Source: an uncultured Planctomycetia bacterium
GTDB taxonomy: Bacteria > Omnitrophota > Gorgyraeia > Duberdicusellales > 4484-171
Direction: 5' to 3'
Assembly (NCBI GenBank): GCA_964635565.1
Contig: CAZWON010000003.1
Span: 5,345-69,344, forward strand
DNA: 64,000 nt
Of this stretch, positions 5,112 through 55,195 are shown piece after piece. A program made the position numbers and the translations under genes. The notes beneath the pieces were generated by a model, which worked only from the letters and a program-made list of their open reading frames with translations, searched no databases and had not been told where the DNA came from. Numbering within the stretch: the first letter of the stretch is position 1; every line of letters begins with the position of its first letter.

Positions 5112-7094
5112 CTAATATATCTTTTCTATCTTTATATTTTTGTAGTAGTGTCTAAGAATATCTTTATAGCTATAGCCCTCTTCTGCCATCTGTATTGCTC
5201 CTTCTTGACACATTCCCACGCCATGACCAAAACCTCCCCCCCATATTAAAACAAGTTTAGGGAGTCGGTTTTTTTCTTCATTTGTATATTTTATTTCTAT
5301 AATGAAAGTACTGCTTCTTAGATTATCCCAGAAATTTCTTATATCTAAATCGCCCCTTAAGTCAATCACTTTATTACCTAAAACTATCTTCATCGCATCT
5401 ATATGACCACAATCTCCTCGTTTAACTATCTTGATATCTTTAATACTCTTAAGAGAAAAACCAAAAACCATTACAAAATCTTCCTCATCATAAATTCTTT
5501 GCCAGCGAAAATTGCTTTTGCGTTTCGTATAAGAACAAAAAGTTAAAGGATAAGATTTAAGCCAATTTTCTAAATTTTCCTTTAAAAAATAAGAAGTTCT
5601 CTTTTTTTCTAAGTCGTATTTGTTTTGGAGATACTGTTTCTTCCCAAATAAATCACTCCTTAAACATCCTCCACAATTAGAATGATAAAATGCTTCAATA
5701 GGTTTATCACCACAAAACATAACCTCTCCATATGTCTGGTTAACAGCTCTGATAGTCTCTTTTCTCTCACTACTCATCCCGCAATAAACCTGACAATGGA
5801 CAGTGCGACAAAAATCAAATCTTTTGTGTCTATACCCTTTACCCATATGTTTAACAATAAGCGTGCGTGCTGCTACTGCCTGGGCTTTTAATGCCTCTAA
5901 AGGAGCATAAGAATATATTTCGCTGGGTAAAATTCCATAAAGATACTCTTCTATATTTATCACATTAATAACAGTTAAAGTGTGGTGGTGACCAATAATC
6001 TCTAAACTACCTCTTAAAGATAAATCTCTGGTAGCTTCCCAGAAATTACCCTTCCCATAAATAGCCCCGAGAATATAAAAGGGATGATTCGTTGTCTTTA
6101 AATAGAGGGGCAATTTTATTTTTGTGATTATTTTATTATCCTCGTAGGTTTTAAGATAAGCCTCCCCCTTTTCTATCGTGATGGTATATAAAGTATCTTC
6201 TTTAAGAAGAAGATGATATTCGTTATCTTCTAAGATAATATTTCCTGAAGATTTAAAACTAACTGAATTCACTCCTTCCAAAATACCTATCCTGACCAAG
6301 GGAATATTATCCCCTAATGACTTGTAGGAAGTTAGTTTTATCTCTTTTCTCTTCTTTAAGAGTTGTTTCTTTTTTTGTAAAAAATACTCTTTACCGAGCA
6401 ATTTCTTAATATAAACTATATCTTGAGCAATCATCTTACTATGGGGATAGAAATTCTGTGCTTTAAGAAAATATCTATACGCAAAGGGAAAGTTTTTTTT
6501 CTTTAAATAGCACTTACCTAAATAATAATTGGCCAATCTTACACTGGGATCGTATTCTATCAGTCTACTAAAATACTTAATTGCCAAAGAATAATTCTTT
6601 CTCCGATAGAACATCTTTCCTAGCCTATACAATGCTATTGAATTATCTTCTAATTTTAAGGATCTCCGATAGTATTTAACTGCAGAAAAGAAATCTTTTA
6701 AATCCTCGTATATCAATCCTAAATAAATATAAACAAATACAGTAGGATGTTTATAAACTAAAGGTTTTAAAAGAGAAAGGGCCTTTTTACTTTCTCCTGT
6801 AAGATAATAAAGTTGAGATAATAAAAACTTCGTTTTATTATTCGTTTTTTTATCTGAGGATGAATTTAGTAATTTAATAGCTTCCTTATATTTCCTTTCC
6901 TCTTTATAATCAAATATCTTTTTTAGGTAAGTACCATCTTTATAGTCAATTTTTCTAAGATAATTCTCAATAATATCGGAGGAAAGATTATCCTTGTAGG
7001 TTTTAGAAAAAACCATCGAGAAAATAGAAGAGAATATAATAGAAAATAAAAAGAGTCTCCTGGGAATAATATTCTTATTCACGCATCTGGCCAT
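5112..7094 (-). CDS. Secreted TPR-repeat protein with a C-terminal SpoIID/LytB domain
   Basis: N-terminal signal peptide and multiple TPR-like repeats. C-terminal EALKAQAVAARTL...CRTVHCQVYCG...YHSNCGG matches SpoIID/LytB family motifs. Overlaps the downstream ORF by 20 nt. Confidence 0.72.
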   Translation of the reverse strand: MARCVNKNIIPRRLFLFSIIFSSIFSMVFSKTYKDNLSSDIIENYLRKIDYKDGTYLKKIFDYKEERKYKEAIKLLNSSSDKKTNNKTKFLLSQLYYLTGESKKALSLLKPLVYKHPTVFVYIYLGLIYEDLKDFFSAVKYYRRSLKLEDNSIALYRLGKMFYRRKNYSLAIKYFSRLIEYDPSVRLANYYLGKCYLKKKNFPFAYRYFLKAQNFYPHSKMIAQDIVYIKKLLGKEYFLQKKKQLLKKRKEIKLTSYKSLGDNIPLVRIGILEGVNSVSFKSSGNIILEDNEYHLLLKEDTLYTITIEKGEAYLKTYEDNKIITKIKLPLYLKTTNHPFYILGAIYGKGNFWEATRDLSLRGSLEIIGHHHTLTVINVINIEEYLYGILPSEIYSYAPLEALKAQAVAARTLIVKHMGKGYRHKRFDFCRTVHCQVYCGMSSERKETIRAVNQTYGEVMFCGDKPIEAFYHSNCGGCLRSDLFGKKQYLQNKYDLEKKRTSYFLKENLENWLKSYPLTFCSYTKRKSNFRWQRIYDEEDFVMVFGFSLKSIKDIKIVKRGDCGHIDAMKIVLGNKVIDLRGDLDIRNFWDNLRSSTFIIEIKYTNEEKNRLPKLVLIWGGGFGHGVGMCQEGAIQMAEEGYSYKDILRHYYKNIKIEKIY

Positions 7095-9607: not shown

Positions 9608-10921
9608 TCAATTATCAACCAAAGCAAACATAAGCTCTGCTTCTGCTACAATCTTATTATCCACAAAGGCCTTGGTAATTACAGTACCTGTACGTTTTTT
9701 TATCTTTCCTGTAGTTACCTCAATAATTAACTGATCTCCTGGTTCTACAGTTTTCCTAAATTTAATATTGTTTGCAGCCATAAAATAGGCTAATTTTCCT
9801 TTATTCTCTTCATCAGCAAGCATCAATACCCCTCCTACTTGAGCCATTGCTTCAATAATAAGTACTCCTGGCATTACTGCTTTGGAAGGAAAATGCCCCT
9901 GGAAAAAATAATCATTTATAGTGACATTTTTTATCCCCACTGCTTTCTTACCCTTTTCCATATAAATAATACGGTCCACTAAAAGAAAAGGATAGCGATG
10001 GGGCAAAACTTGTTTTATATCATCAATAAAAAGCTCTCCTTCTTCTCTAAAATAACTTGCGCTAGAACCCACACCACCTAACAATGCCTTTTCTTTATAT
10101 TTCTTGAGCCTATTAAGAAGTTTAATGTTTAAACTATGACCGCTTCTTATAGCAATAACATGGGCCTTAAGAAATCCTGCCAGATACAAATCACCTAAGA
10201 GGTCTAATACTTTATGCTTTACAAACTCATCAGAAAGCCTCAGCTGGTTTTTAATTATTTTTCTTTTAGAAACAACTAAAGTATTTTCGTAATTAGAACC
10301 TTTTCCCAACCCCATTTTCATTAAAGAATCAACTTCTTCCTCCAAACAAAATGTTCTTGCTTCATAAATCTTATCTGAAAAATCTCCATTTAAAATAATA
10401 TCCAAAAAACCAGTATTAATTATTCTATTATCATACTTTAAAGTGTAAGAAATTCTTGTTTCACGATAAGGAACAACCGCAATGCAAGAATCATTCTCCT
10501 CTACCCACAAGGGCTCTCTAATTACTAGATATTTACGCAATGCTTCCTGAGAAACTATTTCTGCCTCAAGAAGTTTCTCTACAAATTCCTTGGCACTTCC
10601 ATCCATTCCTGGAACCTCTTCTCCCCATATACCCACATAAATATTATCTATCCCTAAAAGATAGAATGCAGACATAAGATGCTCAATGGTATGAATAAAA
10701 ACGTCTCCCTGACCTATAGAAGTACGGCGAGGATACTTTTCCGGATCTAACACCGAATAAAGATCAGCTTTTATCATTACTTCGGGAGATAAATCTTTTC
10801 TAATAAATACCACTCCTGTATTGCACGGAGCAGGTAAAAATTCCATCTTTACTCTTTTTCCTGTATGAAGTCCTACTCCTTCAACTACTACTCTATTCTT
10901 AATAGTATTCTGTTTATCCAT
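9608..10921 (-). CDS. lpxC: Bifunctional UDP-3-O-acyl-GlcNAc deacetylase / 3-hydroxyacyl-ACP dehydratase (LpxC-FabZ fusion)
   Basis: N-terminal [29 protein letters not shown] is the LpxC signature. C-terminal [12 protein letters not shown]...FFQGHFP...[11 protein letters not shown] is the FabZ hot-dog fold signature. 437 aa fits LpxC plus FabZ. Confidence 0.85.
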
Positions 10922-16808: not shown

Positions 16809-17213
16809 TTAAACCACCTCTCCTAAATCTGCTACTTCCTCTGGTTCACTGCCTAAATCTACCTCTTTTGTCTCTGCTTTTACTCCTTTCGGCATAAACT
16901 GCACACTGTTAGCTCTTACTTCAATAATGTTTCGAGATTTACCTTCGGAATTCTGCCAACTACGGGAAATAAGTCTTCCCTCAACAAATATACTTCTTCC
17001 CTTTTCTAAATACTGGTTACAAATCTCTGCTAATTGTCCCCAAGCTACAACATTTACGAAACACGTATCCTTTTTTGCCTCGCCATTCTTATCCTTAAAG
17101 GAAGTATTCACAGCAATTCTTAAAGTAGTAACTGCTGTTCCTTGGGAAGTATAGCGAAGTTCAGGATCTTTTGTAAGATTGCCTACCAAAAGTACTTTAT
17201 TTAAACTAACCAC
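16809..17213 (-). CDS. ssb: Single-stranded DNA-binding protein
   Basis: [25 protein letters not shown]...[10 protein letters not shown]-fold; acidic C-terminal tail. Confidence 0.9.
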
Positions 17214-36337: not shown

Positions 36338-38086
36338 TCACCTCCTCAATAGCTCACTTAAATTCTCCTCTTTTATTTTATACGCTCTAAATATATACTT
36401 ATTATTTATTAATAAAGCTATTCCCTTATCTATCCCTAATTGAGAAATCAACTTATCATTGTCTTTAAGCATATTTTTTATTTTATTAGAATTTATGAAT
36501 CCTGCTATTTTTTTATAATCAATACCTAAACTATCCATCACTTCTACCCACCAACTGCTACTTATATTACTAAGACGCATCATAAGATAACTAAAGAACT
36601 TATCAGGATAAAGATACTTTACCGCTAACATTCTTTTTGTCTCTTCTTTCTCAAAAGATGCTTCTAAGGATTTATCTTCTTTAGGTGGGTAAATAAAATA
36701 AATATTTAAAGCTACCTTCTTCTTGTCACAAAAGTTTTTTAATTCTCTAAGTACACTGAAACAATTATGGTCATAAATACTAAAAAATACATCAATATTA
36801 TTTGGTATCTTTTTCCGATTAAGAAAAAGAAACATTCCTGAGAGATCATTTTTAATGAGAAATTTATCGCCTTTGTCTTCCAAAAAATTACTCACTTTAG
36901 AAAAAACATTTTCTTCCTCTATTGTTTTAGGAACAATAAAAGCAGGTAAATAATTTATACCATACTTTTTTATTAATTGTCGTGCTTCTTTAGTCCGATA
37001 ATCAATTATTCTAAAATTTACACCTGCAAATATTTTTTTAAGATATTCTTCTGTAAAACGTGTAACACAAAAAGAGCACTGCTTATCTGTAATAATGATA
37101 ATATCAATTTCTTTAGCTTCTACATAGATACAGCGAGCAAAAAGAGTACCCGGATTATCACATTGAACAACTAACCTTTCCTTAGAAGGGCAATCTTTAT
37201 CAGAAAAACATTGAGGGAAAAATTTTTTAATCTCTCTGTCCTCTTCTACTGTAAGAGGTAAAAGCTCCTTCTTTAAACTGTATTCTTCAATCCTGTTGTT
37301 TCTCATTTCAATATCTAAAATATCTAAACTCTTTGCTTCATAAGACGGCTTTAGAATTAACGTGTTATTAACCTTATTCTTAGAATATGCTGCCTTTCTA
37401 CCCCCTGAACTAATAATAAAACGTATATCTTTAAAATTATTAGCTATTTCTTCATTAATGTAATCAGGCATACTAGAAAGTAAAATAATAAAATCAACCT
37501 TATCTTTAATCTCCTTAACTACTTTTTCTAAAGAAATCCTATAATCTTTTTGGGAAAGATTATTCTTATTTAACACCTCTGAATCAGTAATACCTACGAT
37601 TCCTACTTTAGCACTGTGGATATCTTTTATAATATAAGCTCGTACCCCTTCTAGAGAGATATTACAAGAGACAAAAGGAAGGCTATATTTCTTAATAATC
37701 TCTTTAAGAAATTCAATACCGAAATTAAACTCTGCCTCGCCAATTGCAATAGCATCATACTTCAGCTTATTTAGAATCCTTAAGTAGTAAGTGGTTCTTT
37801 TTTTGTCTAAGCTTGCATTGATACGAGAAGAATCAAGAAATCCCCCTGCAGTAAAATTACCTGCATCAACAAGCAGTAAACTCTTTTCTTTCTTACGCAA
37901 GCGTTTAATAACTTTCGAGCGCCTCGTAACTCCTCCTGAACTACCAGGACAATAGCCACAAGGATATAAAGAGGAATAAGTATTGCCAGTGTAAACTATA
38001 GAAAGTCTCTCGCCAAAAAGAGGCAAACATATACCCCCACTAATCCAAAATATAACTATAATAACTATAATTTTTTTTATCGCCAT
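36338..38086 (-). CDS. Secreted or membrane-anchored hypothetical protein: 5'-nucleotidase-type metallophosphatase-like N-domain with substituted metal ligands plus thioredoxin-like CxxC region
   Basis: N-terminal TM/signal. SIVYTGNTYSSL...LLLVDAGNFTAGG...YDAIAIGEAEFNFG parallels the HTNDLHG...DAGDxxQG...GNHEF motifs of the 5'-NT/CapA family, but the D/H/N ligands are replaced. C-terminal part has CSFC and other Cys pairs. Confidence 0.4.
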   Translation of the reverse strand: MAIKKIIVIIVIFWISGGICLPLFGERLSIVYTGNTYSSLYPCGYCPGSSGGVTRRSKVIKRLRKKEKSLLLVDAGNFTAGGFLDSSRINASLDKKRTTYYLRILNKLKYDAIAIGEAEFNFGIEFLKEIIKKYSLPFVSCNISLEGVRAYIIKDIHSAKVGIVGITDSEVLNKNNLSQKDYRISLEKVVKEIKDKVDFIILLSSMPDYINEEIANNFKDIRFIISSGGRKAAYSKNKVNNTLILKPSYEAKSLDILDIEMRNNRIEEYSLKKELLPLTVEEDREIKKFFPQCFSDKDCPSKERLVVQCDNPGTLFARCIYVEAKEIDIIIITDKQCSFCVTRFTEEYLKKIFAGVNFRIIDYRTKEARQLIKKYGINYLPAFIVPKTIEEENVFSKVSNFLEDKGDKFLIKNDLSGMFLFLNRKKIPNNIDVFFSIYDHNCFSVLRELKNFCDKKKVALNIYFIYPPKEDKSLEASFEKEETKRMLAVKYLYPDKFFSYLMMRLSNISSSWWVEVMDSLGIDYKKIAGFINSNKIKNMLKDNDKLISQLGIDKGIALLINNKYIFRAYKIKEENLSELLRR

Positions 38087-49816: not shown

Positions 49817-49959
49817 CTATCTTCTGGACTTACAAATTCCTAAAATAAATATATCTTTTGTTGTAAAAATTGATATTTCTAACTGCGTAATTTTATCATA
49901 CATTACTCACCTTCGCAATATAAATTAAATTAATTTATTAAAATAATAAAGAAAGAAGG

Positions 49960-51318
49960 TTAGAGAAAAGGAAGATAATCTTTACCACTCGACAAAGGGT
50001 TCAAAGACGATTTTATATGAATATCTGGGTGAGTCTTTAAACTAATCAGCTCTCCTTTCTTAGAAGGGGGGAAAACGATCTCTACCTCAGGAGAAAAAAT
50101 ATCATCCTCATTTTGTTTTCTCACTATTCCTACCCATCCTTTATCCAGTTCTACAATTGTACTTATAGGATATACCCCCAAAAACCCAAAAAATTTCTCA
50201 AATAGCCAAGGGTCAAATAATCCCCCTTTTTCTTTAAGCATAATTTCATATATCATCTCAGGAGGGTAGTATCTTTTATAACTTCTTCTTGAACGGAGCG
50301 CATCGTAACAATCACATAGAGAAACCATTAAAGAAATAAAATGAGGCCTTTTAGAATAATGAACCTTAGGATACCCTTTTAGGTCATAACGTAAATGGTG
50401 CTCAAAAGCAACAACAGGCGGAAGCATTCCTAAGGAGTCTACATAACGAAGAAGAATCTCCGCCCCTAAAATAGTGTGGCTCTTAATATATCTCATTTCT
50501 TCCTCAGTCAAAATACCCGGCTTACTAATTACTCTTTGTGATATAGCAATTTTACCCATATCATGGAAAAGACCTGCTATTCCTATTTCTAATACATTCT
50601 CCTTATTCAGTGATAATTTAGAAGCAAAAACCATTGCCAATACACTTACATTCAAAGAGTGAACAAATGTAGATAAATCGTGCCTTTTGATTGAAACAAG
50701 CATAAGTAAATCCCAACGCCCCCCTAAAACCATATCCAAAATACTTTTTATTACTCTACGTGCATCATAAAAATCAATAGATTCCCCCCTTAATATTCCT
50801 TTAAATGATTCAGAAATAGTCTCTAATGTATTTTCATAAATACTTGGTTCTACAACATTAAATTTTCCATCTTTCTTCTTCTCTTTGCTTATTCCAATTT
50901 TCTTCTTCTCTTTGCTTATTCCAATTCTTCCTATCTCAATATGTTCTAATGCCAGATGAGAAAAATAATTTGAAAAATCTTCTGCACTCTCCACTTTTTC
51001 TACAAGTGCTCCTATATATTTTCTCAACTCCTCTTTACTCACTCCTCTTTTAAATATCATTTTTTCAATACCTTTATCCTCCAAATTTTTTGTAAGGACA
51101 CCTAACTTTTTGCTTAACTCAAAGAATACCTCCTTGTCATAAACTAATTCTCCCCCTACAAAACCAATGGTTATATCTTTTGAGCTTTCCAAAATCTCCC
51201 TTAATATTTTATATATATTATCTATCGCTTCTTCTGATTTCGGATGGGTTTGAGAATAAAGCATTATAATTTGAAGTGCAGATGCTAATTCTTTTAAAAA
51301 AAGTTCTATCTTACTCAT
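49960..51318 (-). CDS. HD-GYP domain phosphodiesterase (putative c-di-GMP PDE) with an N-terminal domain of unknown function
   Basis: HDMGKIAI...HHLRYDLKGYP (HD ... HH..GYP); 452 aa. The start overlaps the upstream gene's stop by 4 nt. Confidence 0.78.
   Translation of the reverse strand: MSKIELFLKELASALQIIMLYSQTHPKSEEAIDNIYKILREILESSKDITIGFVGGELVYDKEVFFELSKKLGVLTKNLEDKGIEKMIFKRGVSKEELRKYIGALVEKVESAEDFSNYFSHLALEHIEIGRIGISKEKKKIGISKEKKKDGKFNVVEPSIYENTLETISESFKGILRGESIDFYDARRVIKSILDMVLGGRWDLLMLVSIKRHDLSTFVHSLNVSVLAMVFASKLSLNKENVLEIGIAGLFHDMGKIAISQRVISKPGILTEEEMRYIKSHTILGAEILLRYVDSLGMLPPVVAFEHHLRYDLKGYPKVHYSKRPHFISLMVSLCDCYDALRSRRSYKRYYPPEMIYEIMLKEKGGLFDPWLFEKFFGFLGVYPISTIVELDKGWVGIVRKQNEDDIFSPEVEIVFPPSKKGELISLKTHPDIHIKSSLNPLSSGKDYLPFL
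50873..50926. repeat. Perfect 27-bp in-frame tandem duplication inside the HD-GYP gene (encodes IGISKEKKK twice)
   Basis: ttcttcttctctttgcttattccaatt appears twice back to back; the protein shows KKKIGISKEKKKIGISKEKKK. Confidence 0.8.
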
Positions 51319-53273
51319 TTTTCCCTAAAAGTCTCTAATGTTTCCTCAATTGCTTTCCTTAAGGCTTTTCTCCCAAAGAGATAAAATCTTTTTCCTAATC
51401 TCTCCAATGGCTCTTTTGCTTCTCTAATATTATTATTTCCAATTAACCTAACATTATCTATCAAAATATTATTTCTTATGCCTAAAGGATTAAAAATATT
51501 AAGAAGCAAACCTACTGCTTTTTTCTTCAAATGAGGGGCCTTCATAACAATAATATTTAAAATCTCACGTTTAAGAAACATACTTTTGTTTTTCAATACT
51601 CTCAAGATAAAATCTTCATCTATAAAAGACATATTTTGTATTACCCTTATAATTTCTATTTTGATAAAAGGGTTATTAATATTAAATATATACTTCATAA
51701 CTTCCCATGATTCTTTTGTGTCTATATATTTTAATATATTTATTGCTTGCTCTGCCCTTTTAACAGTATAAACATTTTCTCTTATTGTTTTAAATAATAA
51801 ACTCAATTTGTCAGGGAAAAACTGCAAAAAAAGTGCTACTAATCTCCCCACTGAAAGGGTATCTTCCATAATTCTCTCTATATATATATTCGGACCAAGC
51901 GTACTGACAGATATTAACTTAGAGAGGGTATAGAAATCTTCATTGCTCATCCTGCTAATATTATTAAGAACAAAATCCTCTAGGGAAGATATAATCTGTT
52001 TTTTTGTCTTTTTACAGATGTCTACTACTTTATCCCTTAAAGAGCTCCTAATCTTTTTATCTAAAATATCAAGGAGATTTCTAATAAATACAAAATCTTC
52101 TAATTCAATGATTTTCTCCCAATTCTTCATAATATTAAAAATTATAAGCTCAATCCGCATATCTTTTTCCTCCAGATAAAGGAGATTTAAAAGCAGATAA
52201 ATATAGTTATTAAATATCTCCTTCTGATTAAATCTAAAAGAATCCGTTGTTCCCATCTCTCTAATAAGAGAACTTAAAGTAATCATATACACAGGAGAAA
52301 CAAATTTATTCTTAAAAGAGGTAATCAATTCTCTAAGTTTTTCTCTTGTTTCTATGCTATTTAAAATATCTCTGTTAGCGACAAATTTCTCCTTAAGATA
52401 ACCAGCTACTTTTTTCTGCTTATCACCATCAAGAAACTGAGAAAATACCTCTAAGGGGAAAGAATCAAATTTCTTATTTTCAAAATTATACTTCCATAGC
52501 GTCTCTGTCAATGTAAAAGGGTCCATCTTCTCTAAAAGATTTTTTATATCTTTCGCTATTTCCTCTTTCTTAAACAAATCTCTATTGTCCAGGCTAAATT
52601 TAACAAAAGATTCACTACATTGCTTAAATTTATCTATATCTGTTTCTCCCAGATTTTGAAGGACTTTTGTTATTTCTAAAGCTAAAGAGGTATCTCCTGT
52701 TAAATCTTCTGGAGAAAAATTTGATAAAACTTCCTCAAAATGATCAGTCAACTTTTTCATCTCCTCCGCAGGTGCTCTTTTTTTATAAGCTCTTTCTATA
52801 ATAAATTTCCAAATATCTTTTCTTTCCTCTCCTTCTGCTGAACCCAATAACTCTGAATAATCTAACTCCTCAACTTCAATACAAGAGACATTCTCCTTCA
52901 TAAGCCAGCTTTTAATCCCCTCCTCTTTAATAATATCCTTAAACGGTTTACTTACAATATCTATAAAAGTAGCTAATCCTCCAATCGTTACCCCTCTAAA
53001 AAACAGTATCTTTTTTACCTTCCTATAATGAAAGTGTTGGGCTAAACTTTTATATAACAATTCTCCCTTAAAATAGTCTTTCTCAACAAGAAGAGAATCA
53101 GAAGTTATACCAATCCAAAAAGGATCTACAGTATAAGTAATTTCCTCTAATAATTGGTAAGTATCAGAAAGAGATTTTTTAAGAACAGGGTGGTTTTTAA
53201 AATATACGCTAGCATTAGTAAGAGAAATTTTGAGTTGCTTAAAAAACCTCTCAATTAGTTCTCTTTCTATCAT
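51315..53273 (-). CDS. Hypothetical 652-aa helical protein; N-terminal ~140 aa paralogous to the N-domain of the adjacent HD-GYP protein
   Basis: No Walker, tubulin or other catalytic motifs. N-terminus MIERELIERFFKQLKISLTNASVYFKNHPVLKK aligns with MSKIELFLKELASALQIIMLYSQTHPKSEEAI of the downstream protein. Start overlaps the ftsA-like stop (ATGA) and stop overlaps the HD-GYP start. Confidence 0.4.
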   Translation of the reverse strand: MIERELIERFFKQLKISLTNASVYFKNHPVLKKSLSDTYQLLEEITYTVDPFWIGITSDSLLVEKDYFKGELLYKSLAQHFHYRKVKKILFFRGVTIGGLATFIDIVSKPFKDIIKEEGIKSWLMKENVSCIEVEELDYSELLGSAEGEERKDIWKFIIERAYKKRAPAEEMKKLTDHFEEVLSNFSPEDLTGDTSLALEITKVLQNLGETDIDKFKQCSESFVKFSLDNRDLFKKEEIAKDIKNLLEKMDPFTLTETLWKYNFENKKFDSFPLEVFSQFLDGDKQKKVAGYLKEKFVANRDILNSIETREKLRELITSFKNKFVSPVYMITLSSLIREMGTTDSFRFNQKEIFNNYIYLLLNLLYLEEKDMRIELIIFNIMKNWEKIIELEDFVFIRNLLDILDKKIRSSLRDKVVDICKKTKKQIISSLEDFVLNNISRMSNEDFYTLSKLISVSTLGPNIYIERIMEDTLSVGRLVALFLQFFPDKLSLLFKTIRENVYTVKRAEQAINILKYIDTKESWEVMKYIFNINNPFIKIEIIRVIQNMSFIDEDFILRVLKNKSMFLKREILNIIVMKAPHLKKKAVGLLLNIFNPLGIRNNILIDNVRLIGNNNIREAKEPLERLGKRFYLFGRKALRKAIEETLETFREK

Positions 53274-54418
53274 CAGAAATACTCTCTAAAAACATTAACT
53301 ACCCTACACCATAAAGAGTCTTGAATATCTTTCTCAAATAACATCTTTTTCCCATAATATACACAGCCAAACGCCGCAGGACACCTTTCTCTAAAATAAG
53401 AGTTACTATGGATATTCAAATTAAAATTACCCTTCATAAAAGTGTAAAAACCATCTCTCTCTGTTAACTCTCCTACAAAAGATACCGTATAATCTTTTTG
53501 CTGACGTATCTTATTAATATCATGTATAACTTCTTCCATGTTATTCTTAATAACTTCCTTAACAATACTATTAATAATAGTAGCTTCTATAGTAAAATAC
53601 CTATCTCCATTTTTAATGCTTATCTCCTTATCGTGGGGGAGACTGTCAAAAGAACTATAATTTATTACTAAATTTTTCGCTAAATATTCAGGCAGACGAA
53701 ACCTTTTTGCTATCTCTTCTATAATATTATCCTCTCCAAATTCATAAACTCTCTCAAATAATAACCTTCTTCCTAAAAAACACCACAAAAAAGTAGCTTT
53801 CTCTTTTATCTTTATAATAAAAGAGTGGACTTTGCTCGGTATACGATAAAGAGCGCTATACTCAGCGATACTTTCGTGAATAAAGGTAGAAAACTTCCGG
53901 TTAACATTACTGAAGCATTCTCTAAAAGTATCATATAAATCGTAAGGTATAGTTATAAGCATAGATTTTAAAAAAACTTTCTTTGCCCATTCTCCTATAG
54001 GTGAATTATAAAAAATTTTCTCTCCAATTCTATATTCCATAATAATATGATGAAGACAATAATCTCCTAAGTCTAAAGCAATATTTTCCATTTGTTTTTT
54101 TATAGAGACAATGTCTTGAAGAGTTAATTTCTTATAGAAACTTAGGGGCACAACATCCTCTAATATCTTTATTTTTGCATAAGAAGAAGGTAATTTAAAA
54201 AATATATCTCCCATTTTAAAAGAATGCTTTTTTTCCTGGCTTCTAATATACCCGTCAATTTCGTCAATATTAGCAATAATAAAATCTCTTAAATCTTTTC
54301 CTGAATAAGATATTTTCTGCCTTCCTTCAACATACGGAATTATTATCTTTTTTTTACTTAAAACAAAAGAAAAAAATAAGTTATCTTTCTCTAAACTTAA
54401 ACCTCCGTAAACTTTCAT
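53273..54418 (-). CDS. ftsA: Divergent FtsA-like actin-fold protein with degenerate nucleotide-binding motifs
   Basis: Occupies the ftsA slot after ftsQ. HHIIMEYRIGEKIFYNSPIGE parallels FtsA HVIPQEYAIDYQEGIKNPVG. SFIIKIKEKATFLWCFLGRRLLFERVYEFGEDNIIEEIAKRFRLP parallels [43 protein letters not shown] with the glycines lost. C-terminal SLWCRVVNVFREYF resembles the FtsA membrane-targeting helix (GSWIKRLNSWLRKEF). Confidence 0.5.
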   Translation of the reverse strand: MKVYGGLSLEKDNLFFSFVLSKKKIIIPYVEGRQKISYSGKDLRDFIIANIDEIDGYIRSQEKKHSFKMGDIFFKLPSSYAKIKILEDVVPLSFYKKLTLQDIVSIKKQMENIALDLGDYCLHHIIMEYRIGEKIFYNSPIGEWAKKVFLKSMLITIPYDLYDTFRECFSNVNRKFSTFIHESIAEYSALYRIPSKVHSFIIKIKEKATFLWCFLGRRLLFERVYEFGEDNIIEEIAKRFRLPEYLAKNLVINYSSFDSLPHDKEISIKNGDRYFTIEATIINSIVKEVIKNNMEEVIHDINKIRQQKDYTVSFVGELTERDGFYTFMKGNFNLNIHSNSYFRERCPAAFGCVYYGKKMLFEKDIQDSLWCRVVNVFREYF

Positions 54419-54427
54419 CTTTCGTTC

Positions 54428-55195
54428 TTACCATTTATTGCCAACATATATATCGCCGTCCGTAGAGGCATGTCTTAAGTCTATATACCGCAAAGAATCG
54501 ATTTTATTACTGAATTTTTTCTCAAGAAGCCTCTCCAGAAGAAAAAGTTTTTTAGAAAAATTTCCCTCTCCCACAATTATATTAACATCTTTTATAAAAA
54601 ATGAGATAGTATAAAGGGAAGTAGCACTAATAGTATTTATATTAAATCTATGGATTAAAGAACTCTTTTTCAACTCCTTAATCAATTGGTAAACAGAAAC
54701 AAGTCTTCTATCATTAATTGCTTTACCTATTTCTAAAGGAAAATTATAATCTCCTAGCTCAATAATAAAAATGTTAGGGTAGGGAGTGGGGCATCTTTTT
54801 TTTAATAATACTCTCTCTTCATCTAAAATATAAAAACCATCCTTTTTTAATTGAACAAAAGGTTCTCTCTTTTCTGCTTTGATTCTTAAAGTAGAGGGAA
54901 ATACTTTTACTATAGAAACATCTTTAATATTAGGATATTTTTTTATTATTTTACTGCGGAGAGCTTCTACCTTGATAGAAAATATCAATTTTCCTTTTAT
55001 TTGATCCTCTATATTTTTTCCAATCTCTATATTAGAAGTAATGGTATTAATGTTAAATGTAGGTAAAGAAGCTATTTGAAAAGAAAGAAAAAATATCCCT
55101 CCTAATGTTACAAAAATAAGAAATATCTTAACTATATTACTCAAAGGGATAAATTTTCTTCTCTCTTTAAACTTTTTGCTTCGCTTTTTTCTCAT
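54428..55195 (-). CDS. ftsQ: Cell division protein FtsQ/DivIB (TM anchor plus POTRA)
   Basis: Basic N-terminus, single TM (IFLIFVTLGGIFFLSF), POTRA-like region; position between ddl and ftsA. Confidence 0.72.
   Translation of the reverse strand: MRKKRSKKFKERRKFIPLSNIVKIFLIFVTLGGIFFLSFQIASLPTFNINTITSNIEIGKNIEDQIKGKLIFSIKVEALRSKIIKKYPNIKDVSIVKVFPSTLRIKAEKREPFVQLKKDGFYILDEERVLLKKRCPTPYPNIFIIELGDYNFPLEIGKAINDRRLVSVYQLIKELKKSSLIHRFNINTISATSLYTISFFIKDVNIIVGEGNFSKKLFLLERLLEKKFSNKIDSLRYIDLRHASTDGDIYVGNKW

Follow-up and report, generated by a model that had tools for sequence, protein, structure and literature searches.

The window analyzed here is a stretch of 64,000 nt from contig CAZWON010000003.1 of assembly GCA_964635565.1 (forward-strand positions 5,345 to 69,344), deposited under the name of an uncultured Planctomycetia bacterium; the host genome is probably that of a member of the Omnitrophota. 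The window carries a cluster of genes for cell division and wall synthesis (dcw), and this report concerns a pair of genes at its distal end, which encode a 652-aa protein (orf652; 51315-53273, minus strand) without any family in Pfam or NCBIfam and a 452-aa HD-GYP protein (49960-51318, minus strand; HD_5, E = 4e-11), and whose products share a homologous N-terminal domain. The pair is preceded by ftsQ (255 aa; 54428-55195, minus strand) and by the gene for a highly divergent FtsA homolog of 381 aa, designated FtsA* (53273-54418, minus strand; TIGR01174 ftsA, E = 7.6e-11), all four being consecutive minus-strand open reading frames (ORFs) after ddl. FtsQ, the product of the last canonical dcw gene, which lies directly after ddl, was recognized by its POTRA_1 (E = 4e-7) and FtsQ_DivIB_C (E = 7e-4) matches. 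The genes before ftsQ are mraZ-rsmH-ftsL-ftsI-murE-mraY-murD-ftsW-murG-murC-murB-ddl, an order taken from gene calls and Pfam matches on contigs with identical proteins, plus one related locus.

An earlier note on this DNA had described one co-oriented string from ftsQ to the HD-GYP gene, the last three genes of which overlap by 1 and 4 nt, and reading the sequence bore this out. It had also placed an ATGA at both junctions, which is correct for orf652/HD-GYP, where stop and start codon overlap by 4 nt (51315-51318, minus strand), but not for FtsA*/orf652 at 53273, where the junction actually reads TGATG (53271-53275, minus strand) and stop and start codon share one base. Behind the HD-GYP gene follows an AT-rich spacer of 143 nt (49817-49959, minus strand), which is likely the end of the co-translated gene string and contains a promoter-like site (49918-49890), although such sites are no more frequent in this region than in shuffled sequences; the gene beyond it encodes a PfkB-family kinase, after which the window continues with kdsB and pyrG.

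orf652 and the HD-GYP protein share an N-terminal domain

In the AlphaFold model of orf652 (19-sequence alignment; mean pLDDT 87), residues 1-140 (52854-53273, minus strand; pLDDT 82-94) form an alpha/beta domain, contrary to the earlier description of the whole protein as all-helical, and the remainder (residues 141-652; 51315-52853, minus strand) forms a HEAT/ARM-like alpha-solenoid. The stacked helical hairpins by which HEAT/ARM proteins are recognized are present in the model, and fold searches with it returned HEAT/ARM structures exclusively. In sequence, no Pfam model, those for HEAT/ARM repeats included, matched orf652 at E ≤ 1; an orf652-type paralog from another locus (L007:12597-14462) does match HEAT_2 (E = 5.7e-16). 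This lack of a sequence-level HEAT match sets orf652 apart from HEAT/ARM adaptors such as the A subunit of PP2A, importin-beta, the MIF4G domain of eIF4G and the TOG domains of CLASP, as does its N-terminal alpha/beta domain, which has no counterpart in them. Since the similarity is generic for solenoids, no specific partner is implied by it. Homologs of orf652 have a length of ∼640-670 aa, and those that carry names come from Omnitrophota metagenome-assembled genomes (MAGs). That orf652 might be an NTPase or belong to the cytoskeleton was considered and ruled out by the model and the fold searches, in which no tubulin features were seen and no filament-forming protein was matched. Membership of an anti-phage defense system was likewise rejected: the PADLOC models matched neither FtsA* nor orf652, and the HD domain gave no more than weak cross-hits to Cas3 (E = 4e-4).

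Residues 1-135 of the HD-GYP protein (50914-51318, minus strand) make up an N-terminal domain homologous to that of orf652, as the earlier note had proposed. BLASTP aligns the two N-termini over 91 aa with 26% identity (E = 1e-6), and family-level comparisons are far stronger: a hidden Markov model (HMM) built exclusively from orf652-type N-termini matched all 68 HD-GYP partners with a median E of 3e-10, the one built reciprocally from HD-GYP N-termini matched 69 of 70 orf652-type proteins, and hhalign of the two families gave a probability of 98.6% (E = 8.6e-16, 133 columns). The motif Y-x3-H-P is invariant in both. In orf652, it corresponds to the invariant residues Y24, H28 and P29, and the domain ends with ELDYS (residues 136-140); in the HD-GYP protein, residues Q16, Y21, H25, G52 and E57 are conserved throughout the partner family. 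The possibility that the similarity merely reflects a generic, low-complexity coiled coil, which the earlier note had raised against itself, is ruled out by the confident alpha/beta fold, the invariant Y..HP and the profile–profile E-value of 9e-16.

From a collection of 1.84 billion, the orf652 N-domain profile retrieved 4218 representative proteins with E ≤ 1e-3; 205 of these scored at ≤1e-30, and the top 150 were all orf652-type proteins of ∼640 aa. A homolog search with the HD-GYP N-domain alone returned a single fragment. No Pfam family matched the domain at E ≤ 1 across 15 members, and no PDB sequence matched it better than E = 0.026. In the structure searches with the whole orf652 protein, the solenoid swamped the match list. 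The domain has not been described before and is absent from Pfam and from the sequences in the PDB.

The HD-GYP protein is a predicted phosphodiesterase

The catalytic domain of the HD-GYP protein (residues ∼210-380; 50179-50691, minus strand) contains all metal-binding and signature motifs, and its Pfam scores are above the cut-offs for both HD_5 (43.3 bits vs 27.2) and HD (37.2 bits vs 22). The catalytic residues comprise H220, HD252-253 (within FHDMGK), H281, the EHH motif, GYP (LKGYP, within HHLRYDLKGYP) and DxYDA; among 68 orthologs, each of the motifs H..N, HDxGK, H, EHH, GYP and DxYDA is conserved in at least 90%. The domain is followed by a conserved C-terminal segment of ∼70 aa (49960-50178 with the stop codon, minus strand), which in the 68 partners has the pattern GV.P....V.L...A.V..N..DI..P. 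The closest relatives of solved structure are PmGH of Persephonella marina (4mcw, E = 9e-25, aligned with residues 210-377), PA4781 (4r8z, E = 7e-14) and the cyclic GMP-AMP (cGAMP)-specific V-cGAP3 (5z7c, E = 9e-14), and the best NCBIfam match is a family of cyclic di-GMP (c-di-GMP) phosphodiesterases, NosR-type (E = 1e-14). Because HD_5 is matched above its cut-off, the motifs are conserved in the orthologs and the closest solved relatives are active enzymes, the protein is predicted to be a catalytically competent phosphodiesterase, for which c-di-GMP or pGpG would be the likeliest substrates.

It shares the full H..HD..H..HH..GYP..D signature with known HD-GYP phosphodiesterases such as PmGH, RpfG and PA4781, and, like these, it carries a putatively regulatory domain at its N-terminus. 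It differs from them in that this domain is neither REC nor GAF nor DUF3391, and in that a paralogous copy resides on a second protein with HEAT repeats, whose gene is obligatorily adjacent. A HEAT-repeat partner of this kind for HD-GYP enzymes was not found described in the searchable literature.

The two genes form a conserved unit

A scan of GTDB species genomes with orf652 gave 80 loci in Omnitrophota and Candidatus Aminicenantes (Acidobacteriota), three complete chromosomes among them. In every locus with readable downstream DNA (77/77), orf652 is succeeded on its own strand by a gene for an HD-GYP protein with the N-domain, and the two ORFs as called mostly overlap by 4-17 nt. Outside the dcw cluster, the upstream neighbor of the pair is gdhA (12 loci) or a gene for glutamate synthase, glnA, polA, or a gene for NAD synthase, a methyl-accepting chemotaxis protein (MCP) or a TPR protein; pyrG/carAB often lie downstream. 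A gene for a PAS protein with a degenerate GGDEF domain precedes the pair in five Aminicenantes loci.

The five PAS–GGDEF genes (L006 3376-4320, L022 3290-4225, L033 9056-9991, L047 2395-3330 and L066 2-964) encode proteins of ∼311-320 aa, in which sequences such as GRWEGQEF, GRWSSKKL and GRWKEDEF occupy the place of the GGDEF motif; given this degeneration, the protein is probably no active cyclase. Two loci have a second, paralogous pair of the same architecture a few kilobases from the first. That of L007 (12597-15933) consists of a 621-aa protein with N-domain and HEAT_2 match, which is the HEAT_2-positive paralog mentioned above, followed by a 517-aa protein with N-domain and HD_5; in that of L034 (14893-18221, minus strand), a protein of 469 aa with the N-domain precedes one of 489 aa with N-domain and HD domain.

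In a neighbor-joining tree of orf652, the Aminicenantes form one clade and the other Omnitrophota another, and the dcw-linked sequences constitute several deep basal branches; the resolution of this tree is too poor to judge whether the dcw linkage is ancestral. Several assemblies labeled as uncultured Planctomycetia, Planctomycetales, Eubacteriales or Clostridiales (L002, L005, L012, L013, L018, L020, L046, L048, L057, L065, L068 and L070) contribute orf652 sequences that cluster within Omnitrophota/Aminicenantes, which is why their names are probably placeholders.

Linkage to the division cluster is restricted to one lineage

Apart from the window, no more than 10 distinct genome loci have ftsQ and FtsA* immediately upstream of the pair, one of them on a complete Omnitrophota chromosome (CP070807.1; L009). 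Within this dcw-linked lineage, the pair is always found behind FtsA* in the loci of the genome scan with readable DNA. A metagenome scan with a five-sequence FtsA* subset, used because the full alignment had no sufficiently conserved stretch, added 20 loci with FtsA*, 15 of which were readable and 13 of which had orf652 and the HD-GYP gene immediately after it. The arrangement is thus shared with relatives, as the earlier note had anticipated, and no local accident. The two loci in which FtsA* is not followed by the pair have a REC gene and an HD-GYP gene (L083) or a ComEC-family gene (L100) in its place.

Coupling between FtsA* and orf652 is tight: of 25 junctions, 13 have the stop codon overlapping or touching the start codon and 10 more have a gap of at most 50 nt, adding up to 23/25. 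The block ddl-ftsQ-FtsA*-pair is kept even in L098 and L099, where murC and murB are not upstream. Across the dcw-linked loci, identity decreases to 22% for FtsA*, 26% for orf652 and 46% for Ddl, and the fact that even Ddl is only 46-57% identical among these loci indicates that the lineage is deep. Matches to "Ddl" in L040 and L078 were discarded as not belonging to dcw clusters, the iterated Ddl HMM having drifted into CarB, another ATP-grasp protein.

In many dcw-linked loci, the pair is followed by genes for a REC protein that stands alone, a further HD-GYP protein (which has a GAF domain in L085) and a glycosyltransferase resembling monogalactosyldiacylglycerol (MGDG) synthase, none of which occurs after the pair in the window. 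This series is found at L085 12514-15244 and L009 13400-14994, and also in L086, L091, L093 and L097; in L083 (9301-12132), it stands directly after FtsA*, with no pair in between.

FtsA* is a divergent FtsA homolog

FtsA* is a true FtsA homolog rather than another actin-fold protein, to judge from profile comparisons. Its score against the TIGR01174 equivalog (41.7 bits) is below the curated cut-off of 175.85, and that against Pfam SHS2_FTSA (12.9 bits) is below the threshold of 25.4. A profile of 11 FtsA* orthologs, however, aligned with E. coli FtsA over 315 columns with 92.8% probability (hhalign; E = 4e-7). Against PDB sequences, the top six matches of the family profile were all FtsA (3.6e-12 to 2e-5), among them 7q6d (3.6e-12), 1e4f from Thermotoga maritima (8e-6) and 3wt0 from Staphylococcus aureus (1.5e-5), with PilM as the first match outside FtsA (E = 0.06). 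The earlier note's reading of the gene as a degenerate FtsA is therefore upheld.

The motifs with which actin-fold proteins bind ATP (phosphate-1 DxG[ST], phosphate-2, adenosine GGG) are not conserved in FtsA*. In the family alignment, the corresponding positions of the window protein read GLSLEK (phosphate-1), KIKEKAT (phosphate-2) and GELT (adenosine). Among the 11 members, phosphate-1 is mostly DxD, some keep an IGY..T phosphate-2 motif like that of T. maritima FtsA, and GGG is replaced by GELT or GRLN. Nucleotide binding by FtsA* has probably been lost or altered. The 1C/SHS2 region is retained according to the sequence alignment; an AlphaFold model of FtsA* from three sequences was unusable (pLDDT 40.6). 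The C-terminus is invariantly ..(K/R)(E/D)YF and, in the window protein, ends with EYF as an amphipathic helix, the hydrophobic moment of the last 14 residues being 0.60 (0.62 for the tail of E. coli FtsA). Eight members ranged from 0.45 to 0.71, and the moment exceeded that of 92-99.6% of shuffled sequences in seven of them and of ∼85% in the eighth, from L077. Strong conservation was also observed for Y254, F257, E265 and Y274 in the 2B region.

Compared with FtsA proper (TIGR01174; PDB 7Q6D, 1E4F and 3WQT), the actin-fold protein that tethers FtsZ to the membrane, FtsA* likewise follows ftsQ, has FtsA as its best and sole strong structural-family match, and shares an alignable 1C region and a C-terminal amphipathic helix (EYF vs KEF in E. 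coli). It differs in its sub-cut-off score, its unconserved phosphate-1, phosphate-2 and adenosine motifs, the absence of ftsZ behind it, and its fast evolution: its pairwise identities (median 39%, minimum 22%) are lower than those of Ddl from the same loci (57% and 46%), so that FtsA* evolves much faster than Ddl. In the complete genome, the FtsA* ortholog is labeled by NCBI as a hypothetical protein. With such a label from standard pipelines, FtsA may be undercounted when the division genes of Omnitrophota are surveyed.

FtsZ in the window and in the phylum

No tubulin motif of the GGGTG[ST]G type occurs in any of the six frames of the window, as already noted for orf652, and E. coli FtsZ did not match any of its ORFs (phmmer). 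Neither was FtsZ detected with the E. coli protein (tblastn/phmmer) within ∼10 kb of the ∼100 related loci (81 genome and 20 metagenome loci), a range that falls short of whole genomes, and in none of ∼25 loci is ftsZ adjacent to FtsA*. That FtsZ is absent from Omnitrophica and FtsA retained is already on record in outline, but only as an entry in a table and a remark in the legend of a figure. The absence of FtsZ is stated by Pende et al. 2021 (PMC8178401), whose Supplementary Data 2, with columns for FtsZ, SepF and FtsA and with absences checked by tblastn, lists FtsZ as NA in four of five Omnitrophica genomes; three of these four have FtsA. In the analysis of Rivas-Marin et al. 2016 (PMC5147048), "Omnitrophica OLB16" was the only genome with FtsZ and the others were left open, and a 2025 survey groups Omnitrophota with the dcw-conserving phyla, giving no detail. 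The phylum of the window, which is related to the Planctomycetota–Verrucomicrobiota–Chlamydiota (PVC) bacteria, resembles the FtsZ-less Chlamydiota and Planctomycetota in that it is reported to lack FtsZ and to keep peptidoglycan synthesis and FtsQ/L/I/W. In contrast to these two groups, which are reported to be without FtsA too, the lineage of the window keeps a remodeled FtsA.

For the Aminicenantes bacterium JdFR-80, the table of Pende et al. 2021 (PMC8178401) contains an FtsZ (MTOP01000091.1_69) adjoining an FtsA (MTOP01000091.1_68). The same MAG also carries the orf652/HD-GYP pair (L066, contig MTOP01000109.1). As the pair thus coexists with canonical ftsA-ftsZ, it is not in itself a substitute for FtsZ.

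Discussion

Taken together, the reading favored here, at a probability of roughly 0.55, is that the pair is a self-contained HD-GYP signaling module that, in one deep lineage of Omnitrophota, has been joined to the dcw operon at its end and is probably co-expressed with the division genes there. Support for a signaling unit comes from the invariance of the pair across two phyla, from its paralogous copies in L007 and L034, and from neighbors of the signaling type, namely the PAS–GGDEF genes of five Aminicenantes loci and the REC and GAF-HD-GYP genes of many dcw-linked loci. The N-domain of the HD-GYP phosphodiesterase would be regulatory, and orf652 would present a paralogous copy of it fused to the HEAT/ARM solenoid. 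The two N-domains might bind to one another or respond to a common signal, and the solenoid might serve as an adaptor, either regulating the phosphodiesterase or positioning it in the cell. In the dcw-linked lineage, the module sits at the distal end of the operon behind ftsQ and the motif-degenerate FtsA*, which is putatively membrane-anchored; co-expression with division and peptidoglycan genes is probable and would tie the turnover of a nucleotide signal to division. Such a link of the module to division is plausible.

Control of division and of the cell cycle by c-di-GMP has precedents: DgcN/YfiN of E. coli arrests division at the Z-ring, and in Caulobacter, PleD, PdeA and CckA are involved. 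These systems have in common with the proposed one that an enzyme of c-di-GMP turnover is coupled to division, which is suggested here by gene order only. They differ in that their enzymes are encoded outside the dcw operon, work with an FtsZ-based divisome and have other domain architectures.

Several observations weigh against this reading. Division genes are absent beside the pair in ∼70 of the 81 genome loci, so that its linkage to dcw could be functionless, inherited synteny. Heterodimerization of the N-domains is suggested solely by their paralogy and the strict co-occurrence of the two genes. The relationship to the cGAMP-specific enzyme 5z7c makes the substrate questionable, and neither a canonical GGDEF gene nor a c-di-GMP riboswitch was seen in the 64-kb window. 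Finally, a promoter and terminator scan was uninformative in this AT-rich DNA, its outcome being no different from that for shuffled sequences.

The most serious competitor, although rather unlikely, is that there is no functional tie at all: an independent module would have come to lie beside FtsA* after the loss or relocation of an ancestral ftsZ, and the adjacency would have been kept by descent. The diverse, mostly housekeeping neighbors of the pair elsewhere (gdhA in 12 loci, glnA, polA, pyrG/carAB and others) would fit, as would the loci in which FtsA* occurs without the pair (L083 and L100). In the dcw-linked L001, moreover, a gltD-like gene, gdhA and glnA are located a few kilobases downstream, which suggests a rearranged block. 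On the other hand, the adjacency has outlasted the divergence of FtsA*, orf652 and Ddl down to the identities given above (22%, 26% and 46%), and the block persists behind different upstream dcw genes in L098 and L099. Stop and start codons that overlap or abut in about half of the junctions (13/25) would also be unusual for unrelated neighbors. A different question, compatible with any of these readings, is whether the enzyme acts on another nucleotide (3′3′-cGAMP, pGpG or other) and hence belongs to a different signaling pathway. This is doubtful, and less probable than mere inherited adjacency. V-cGAP3 and PA4781 are among its structural relatives, the only GGDEF genes beside the pair are degenerate, and the window is devoid of a c-di-GMP riboswitch; but the best match is the c-di-GMP phosphodiesterase PmGH, the NCBIfam assignment agrees with it, and the survey of cyclases covered only 64 kb of the genome.

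The earlier note had gone further and suggested that the pair may replace or supplement FtsZ. As a replacement in an FtsZ-less lineage, orf652 (with the HD-GYP enzyme) would be the cytoplasmic partner that FtsA* tethers to the membrane, and it would organize the division site. What speaks for replacement is position: the pair stands precisely where ftsZ would follow ftsA, and its codons overlap with those before them; this place has been kept across a deep lineage, and FtsZ was found neither in the window nor within 10 kb of the related loci. Four of five Omnitrophica genomes are listed without FtsZ, and three of these four have FtsA (Pende et al. 2021; PMC8178401); the conserved residues Y254, F257, E265 and Y274 of FtsA* could bind a new partner. 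Nevertheless, replacement is highly improbable and was not retained. orf652 is a HEAT/ARM solenoid without GTPase, other NTPase or tubulin features, with no filament-forming protein among its structural matches; the same pair stands free of dcw, among unrelated genes, in the majority of Omnitrophota loci and in all those of Aminicenantes; JdFR-80 has it in addition to adjacent FtsA/FtsZ; and two FtsA* loci (L083 and L100) do without it. A bolder scenario is confined to Omnitrophota that have lost FtsZ and keep peptidoglycan synthesis, FtsQ/L/I/W and a remodeled FtsA: there, the HEAT protein would be the cytoplasmic partner held at the membrane by a probably ATP-independent FtsA* and, together with the HD-GYP enzyme, would form a division-site organizer controlled by a nucleotide signal. 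It is regarded as a long shot, only marginally better placed than general replacement. If true, division without FtsZ would have a third kind of apparatus, next to the ones known from Chlamydiota and Planctomycetota.

Irrespective of its role in division, the pair as a self-contained module represents an undescribed, apparently obligatory two-gene HD-GYP system, with a shared domain whose profile retrieves ∼4,200 protein clusters, and it offers a way into the regulation or positioning of HD-GYP enzymes. Neither the pair nor the shared domain nor the operon link to a degenerate FtsA was found to have a described counterpart in Pfam, NCBIfam, the PDB or the searchable literature, in agreement with what the earlier note had supposed for the pair. 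In a phylum reported to be FtsZ-less, the genes at this locus are also candidates for asking how a bacterium that contains peptidoglycan and retains FtsA divides without FtsZ.

Other features of the window

The minus strand carries all credible genes of the window (1-64000). GC skew stays below zero across its whole length (-0.12 to -0.40), and the strand bias is unusually uniform. A lipid A cluster, lpxD-lpxC/fabZ-lpxA-lpxI-skp, includes an LpxC-FabZ fusion (9608-10921), and the presence of the cluster indicates that the organism is a diderm with lipid A. At 5112-7094, TPR and SpoIID domains are combined in one protein (660-aa ORF; 634 aa as called), and a 582-aa ORF with no Pfam family on record (36338-38086) lies beside a gene resembling that for phosphoglycerate dehydrogenase.

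On the same contig (ENA ERZ1742239 NODE_74), ∼4-10 kb beyond position 1 of the window, there is an rRNA operon (L103 16388-21374). Its 16S gene contains a group I intron (Rfam RF00028, 57.6 bits; 16938-17192), and the 16S match covers 1861 nt, compared with 1533 nt for the model. An ORF of the LAGLIDADG type starts at L103 21015, beside or inside the 23S gene. Mobile intron RNA has been reported in the Omnitrophota predator Velamenicoccus (2026 paper).

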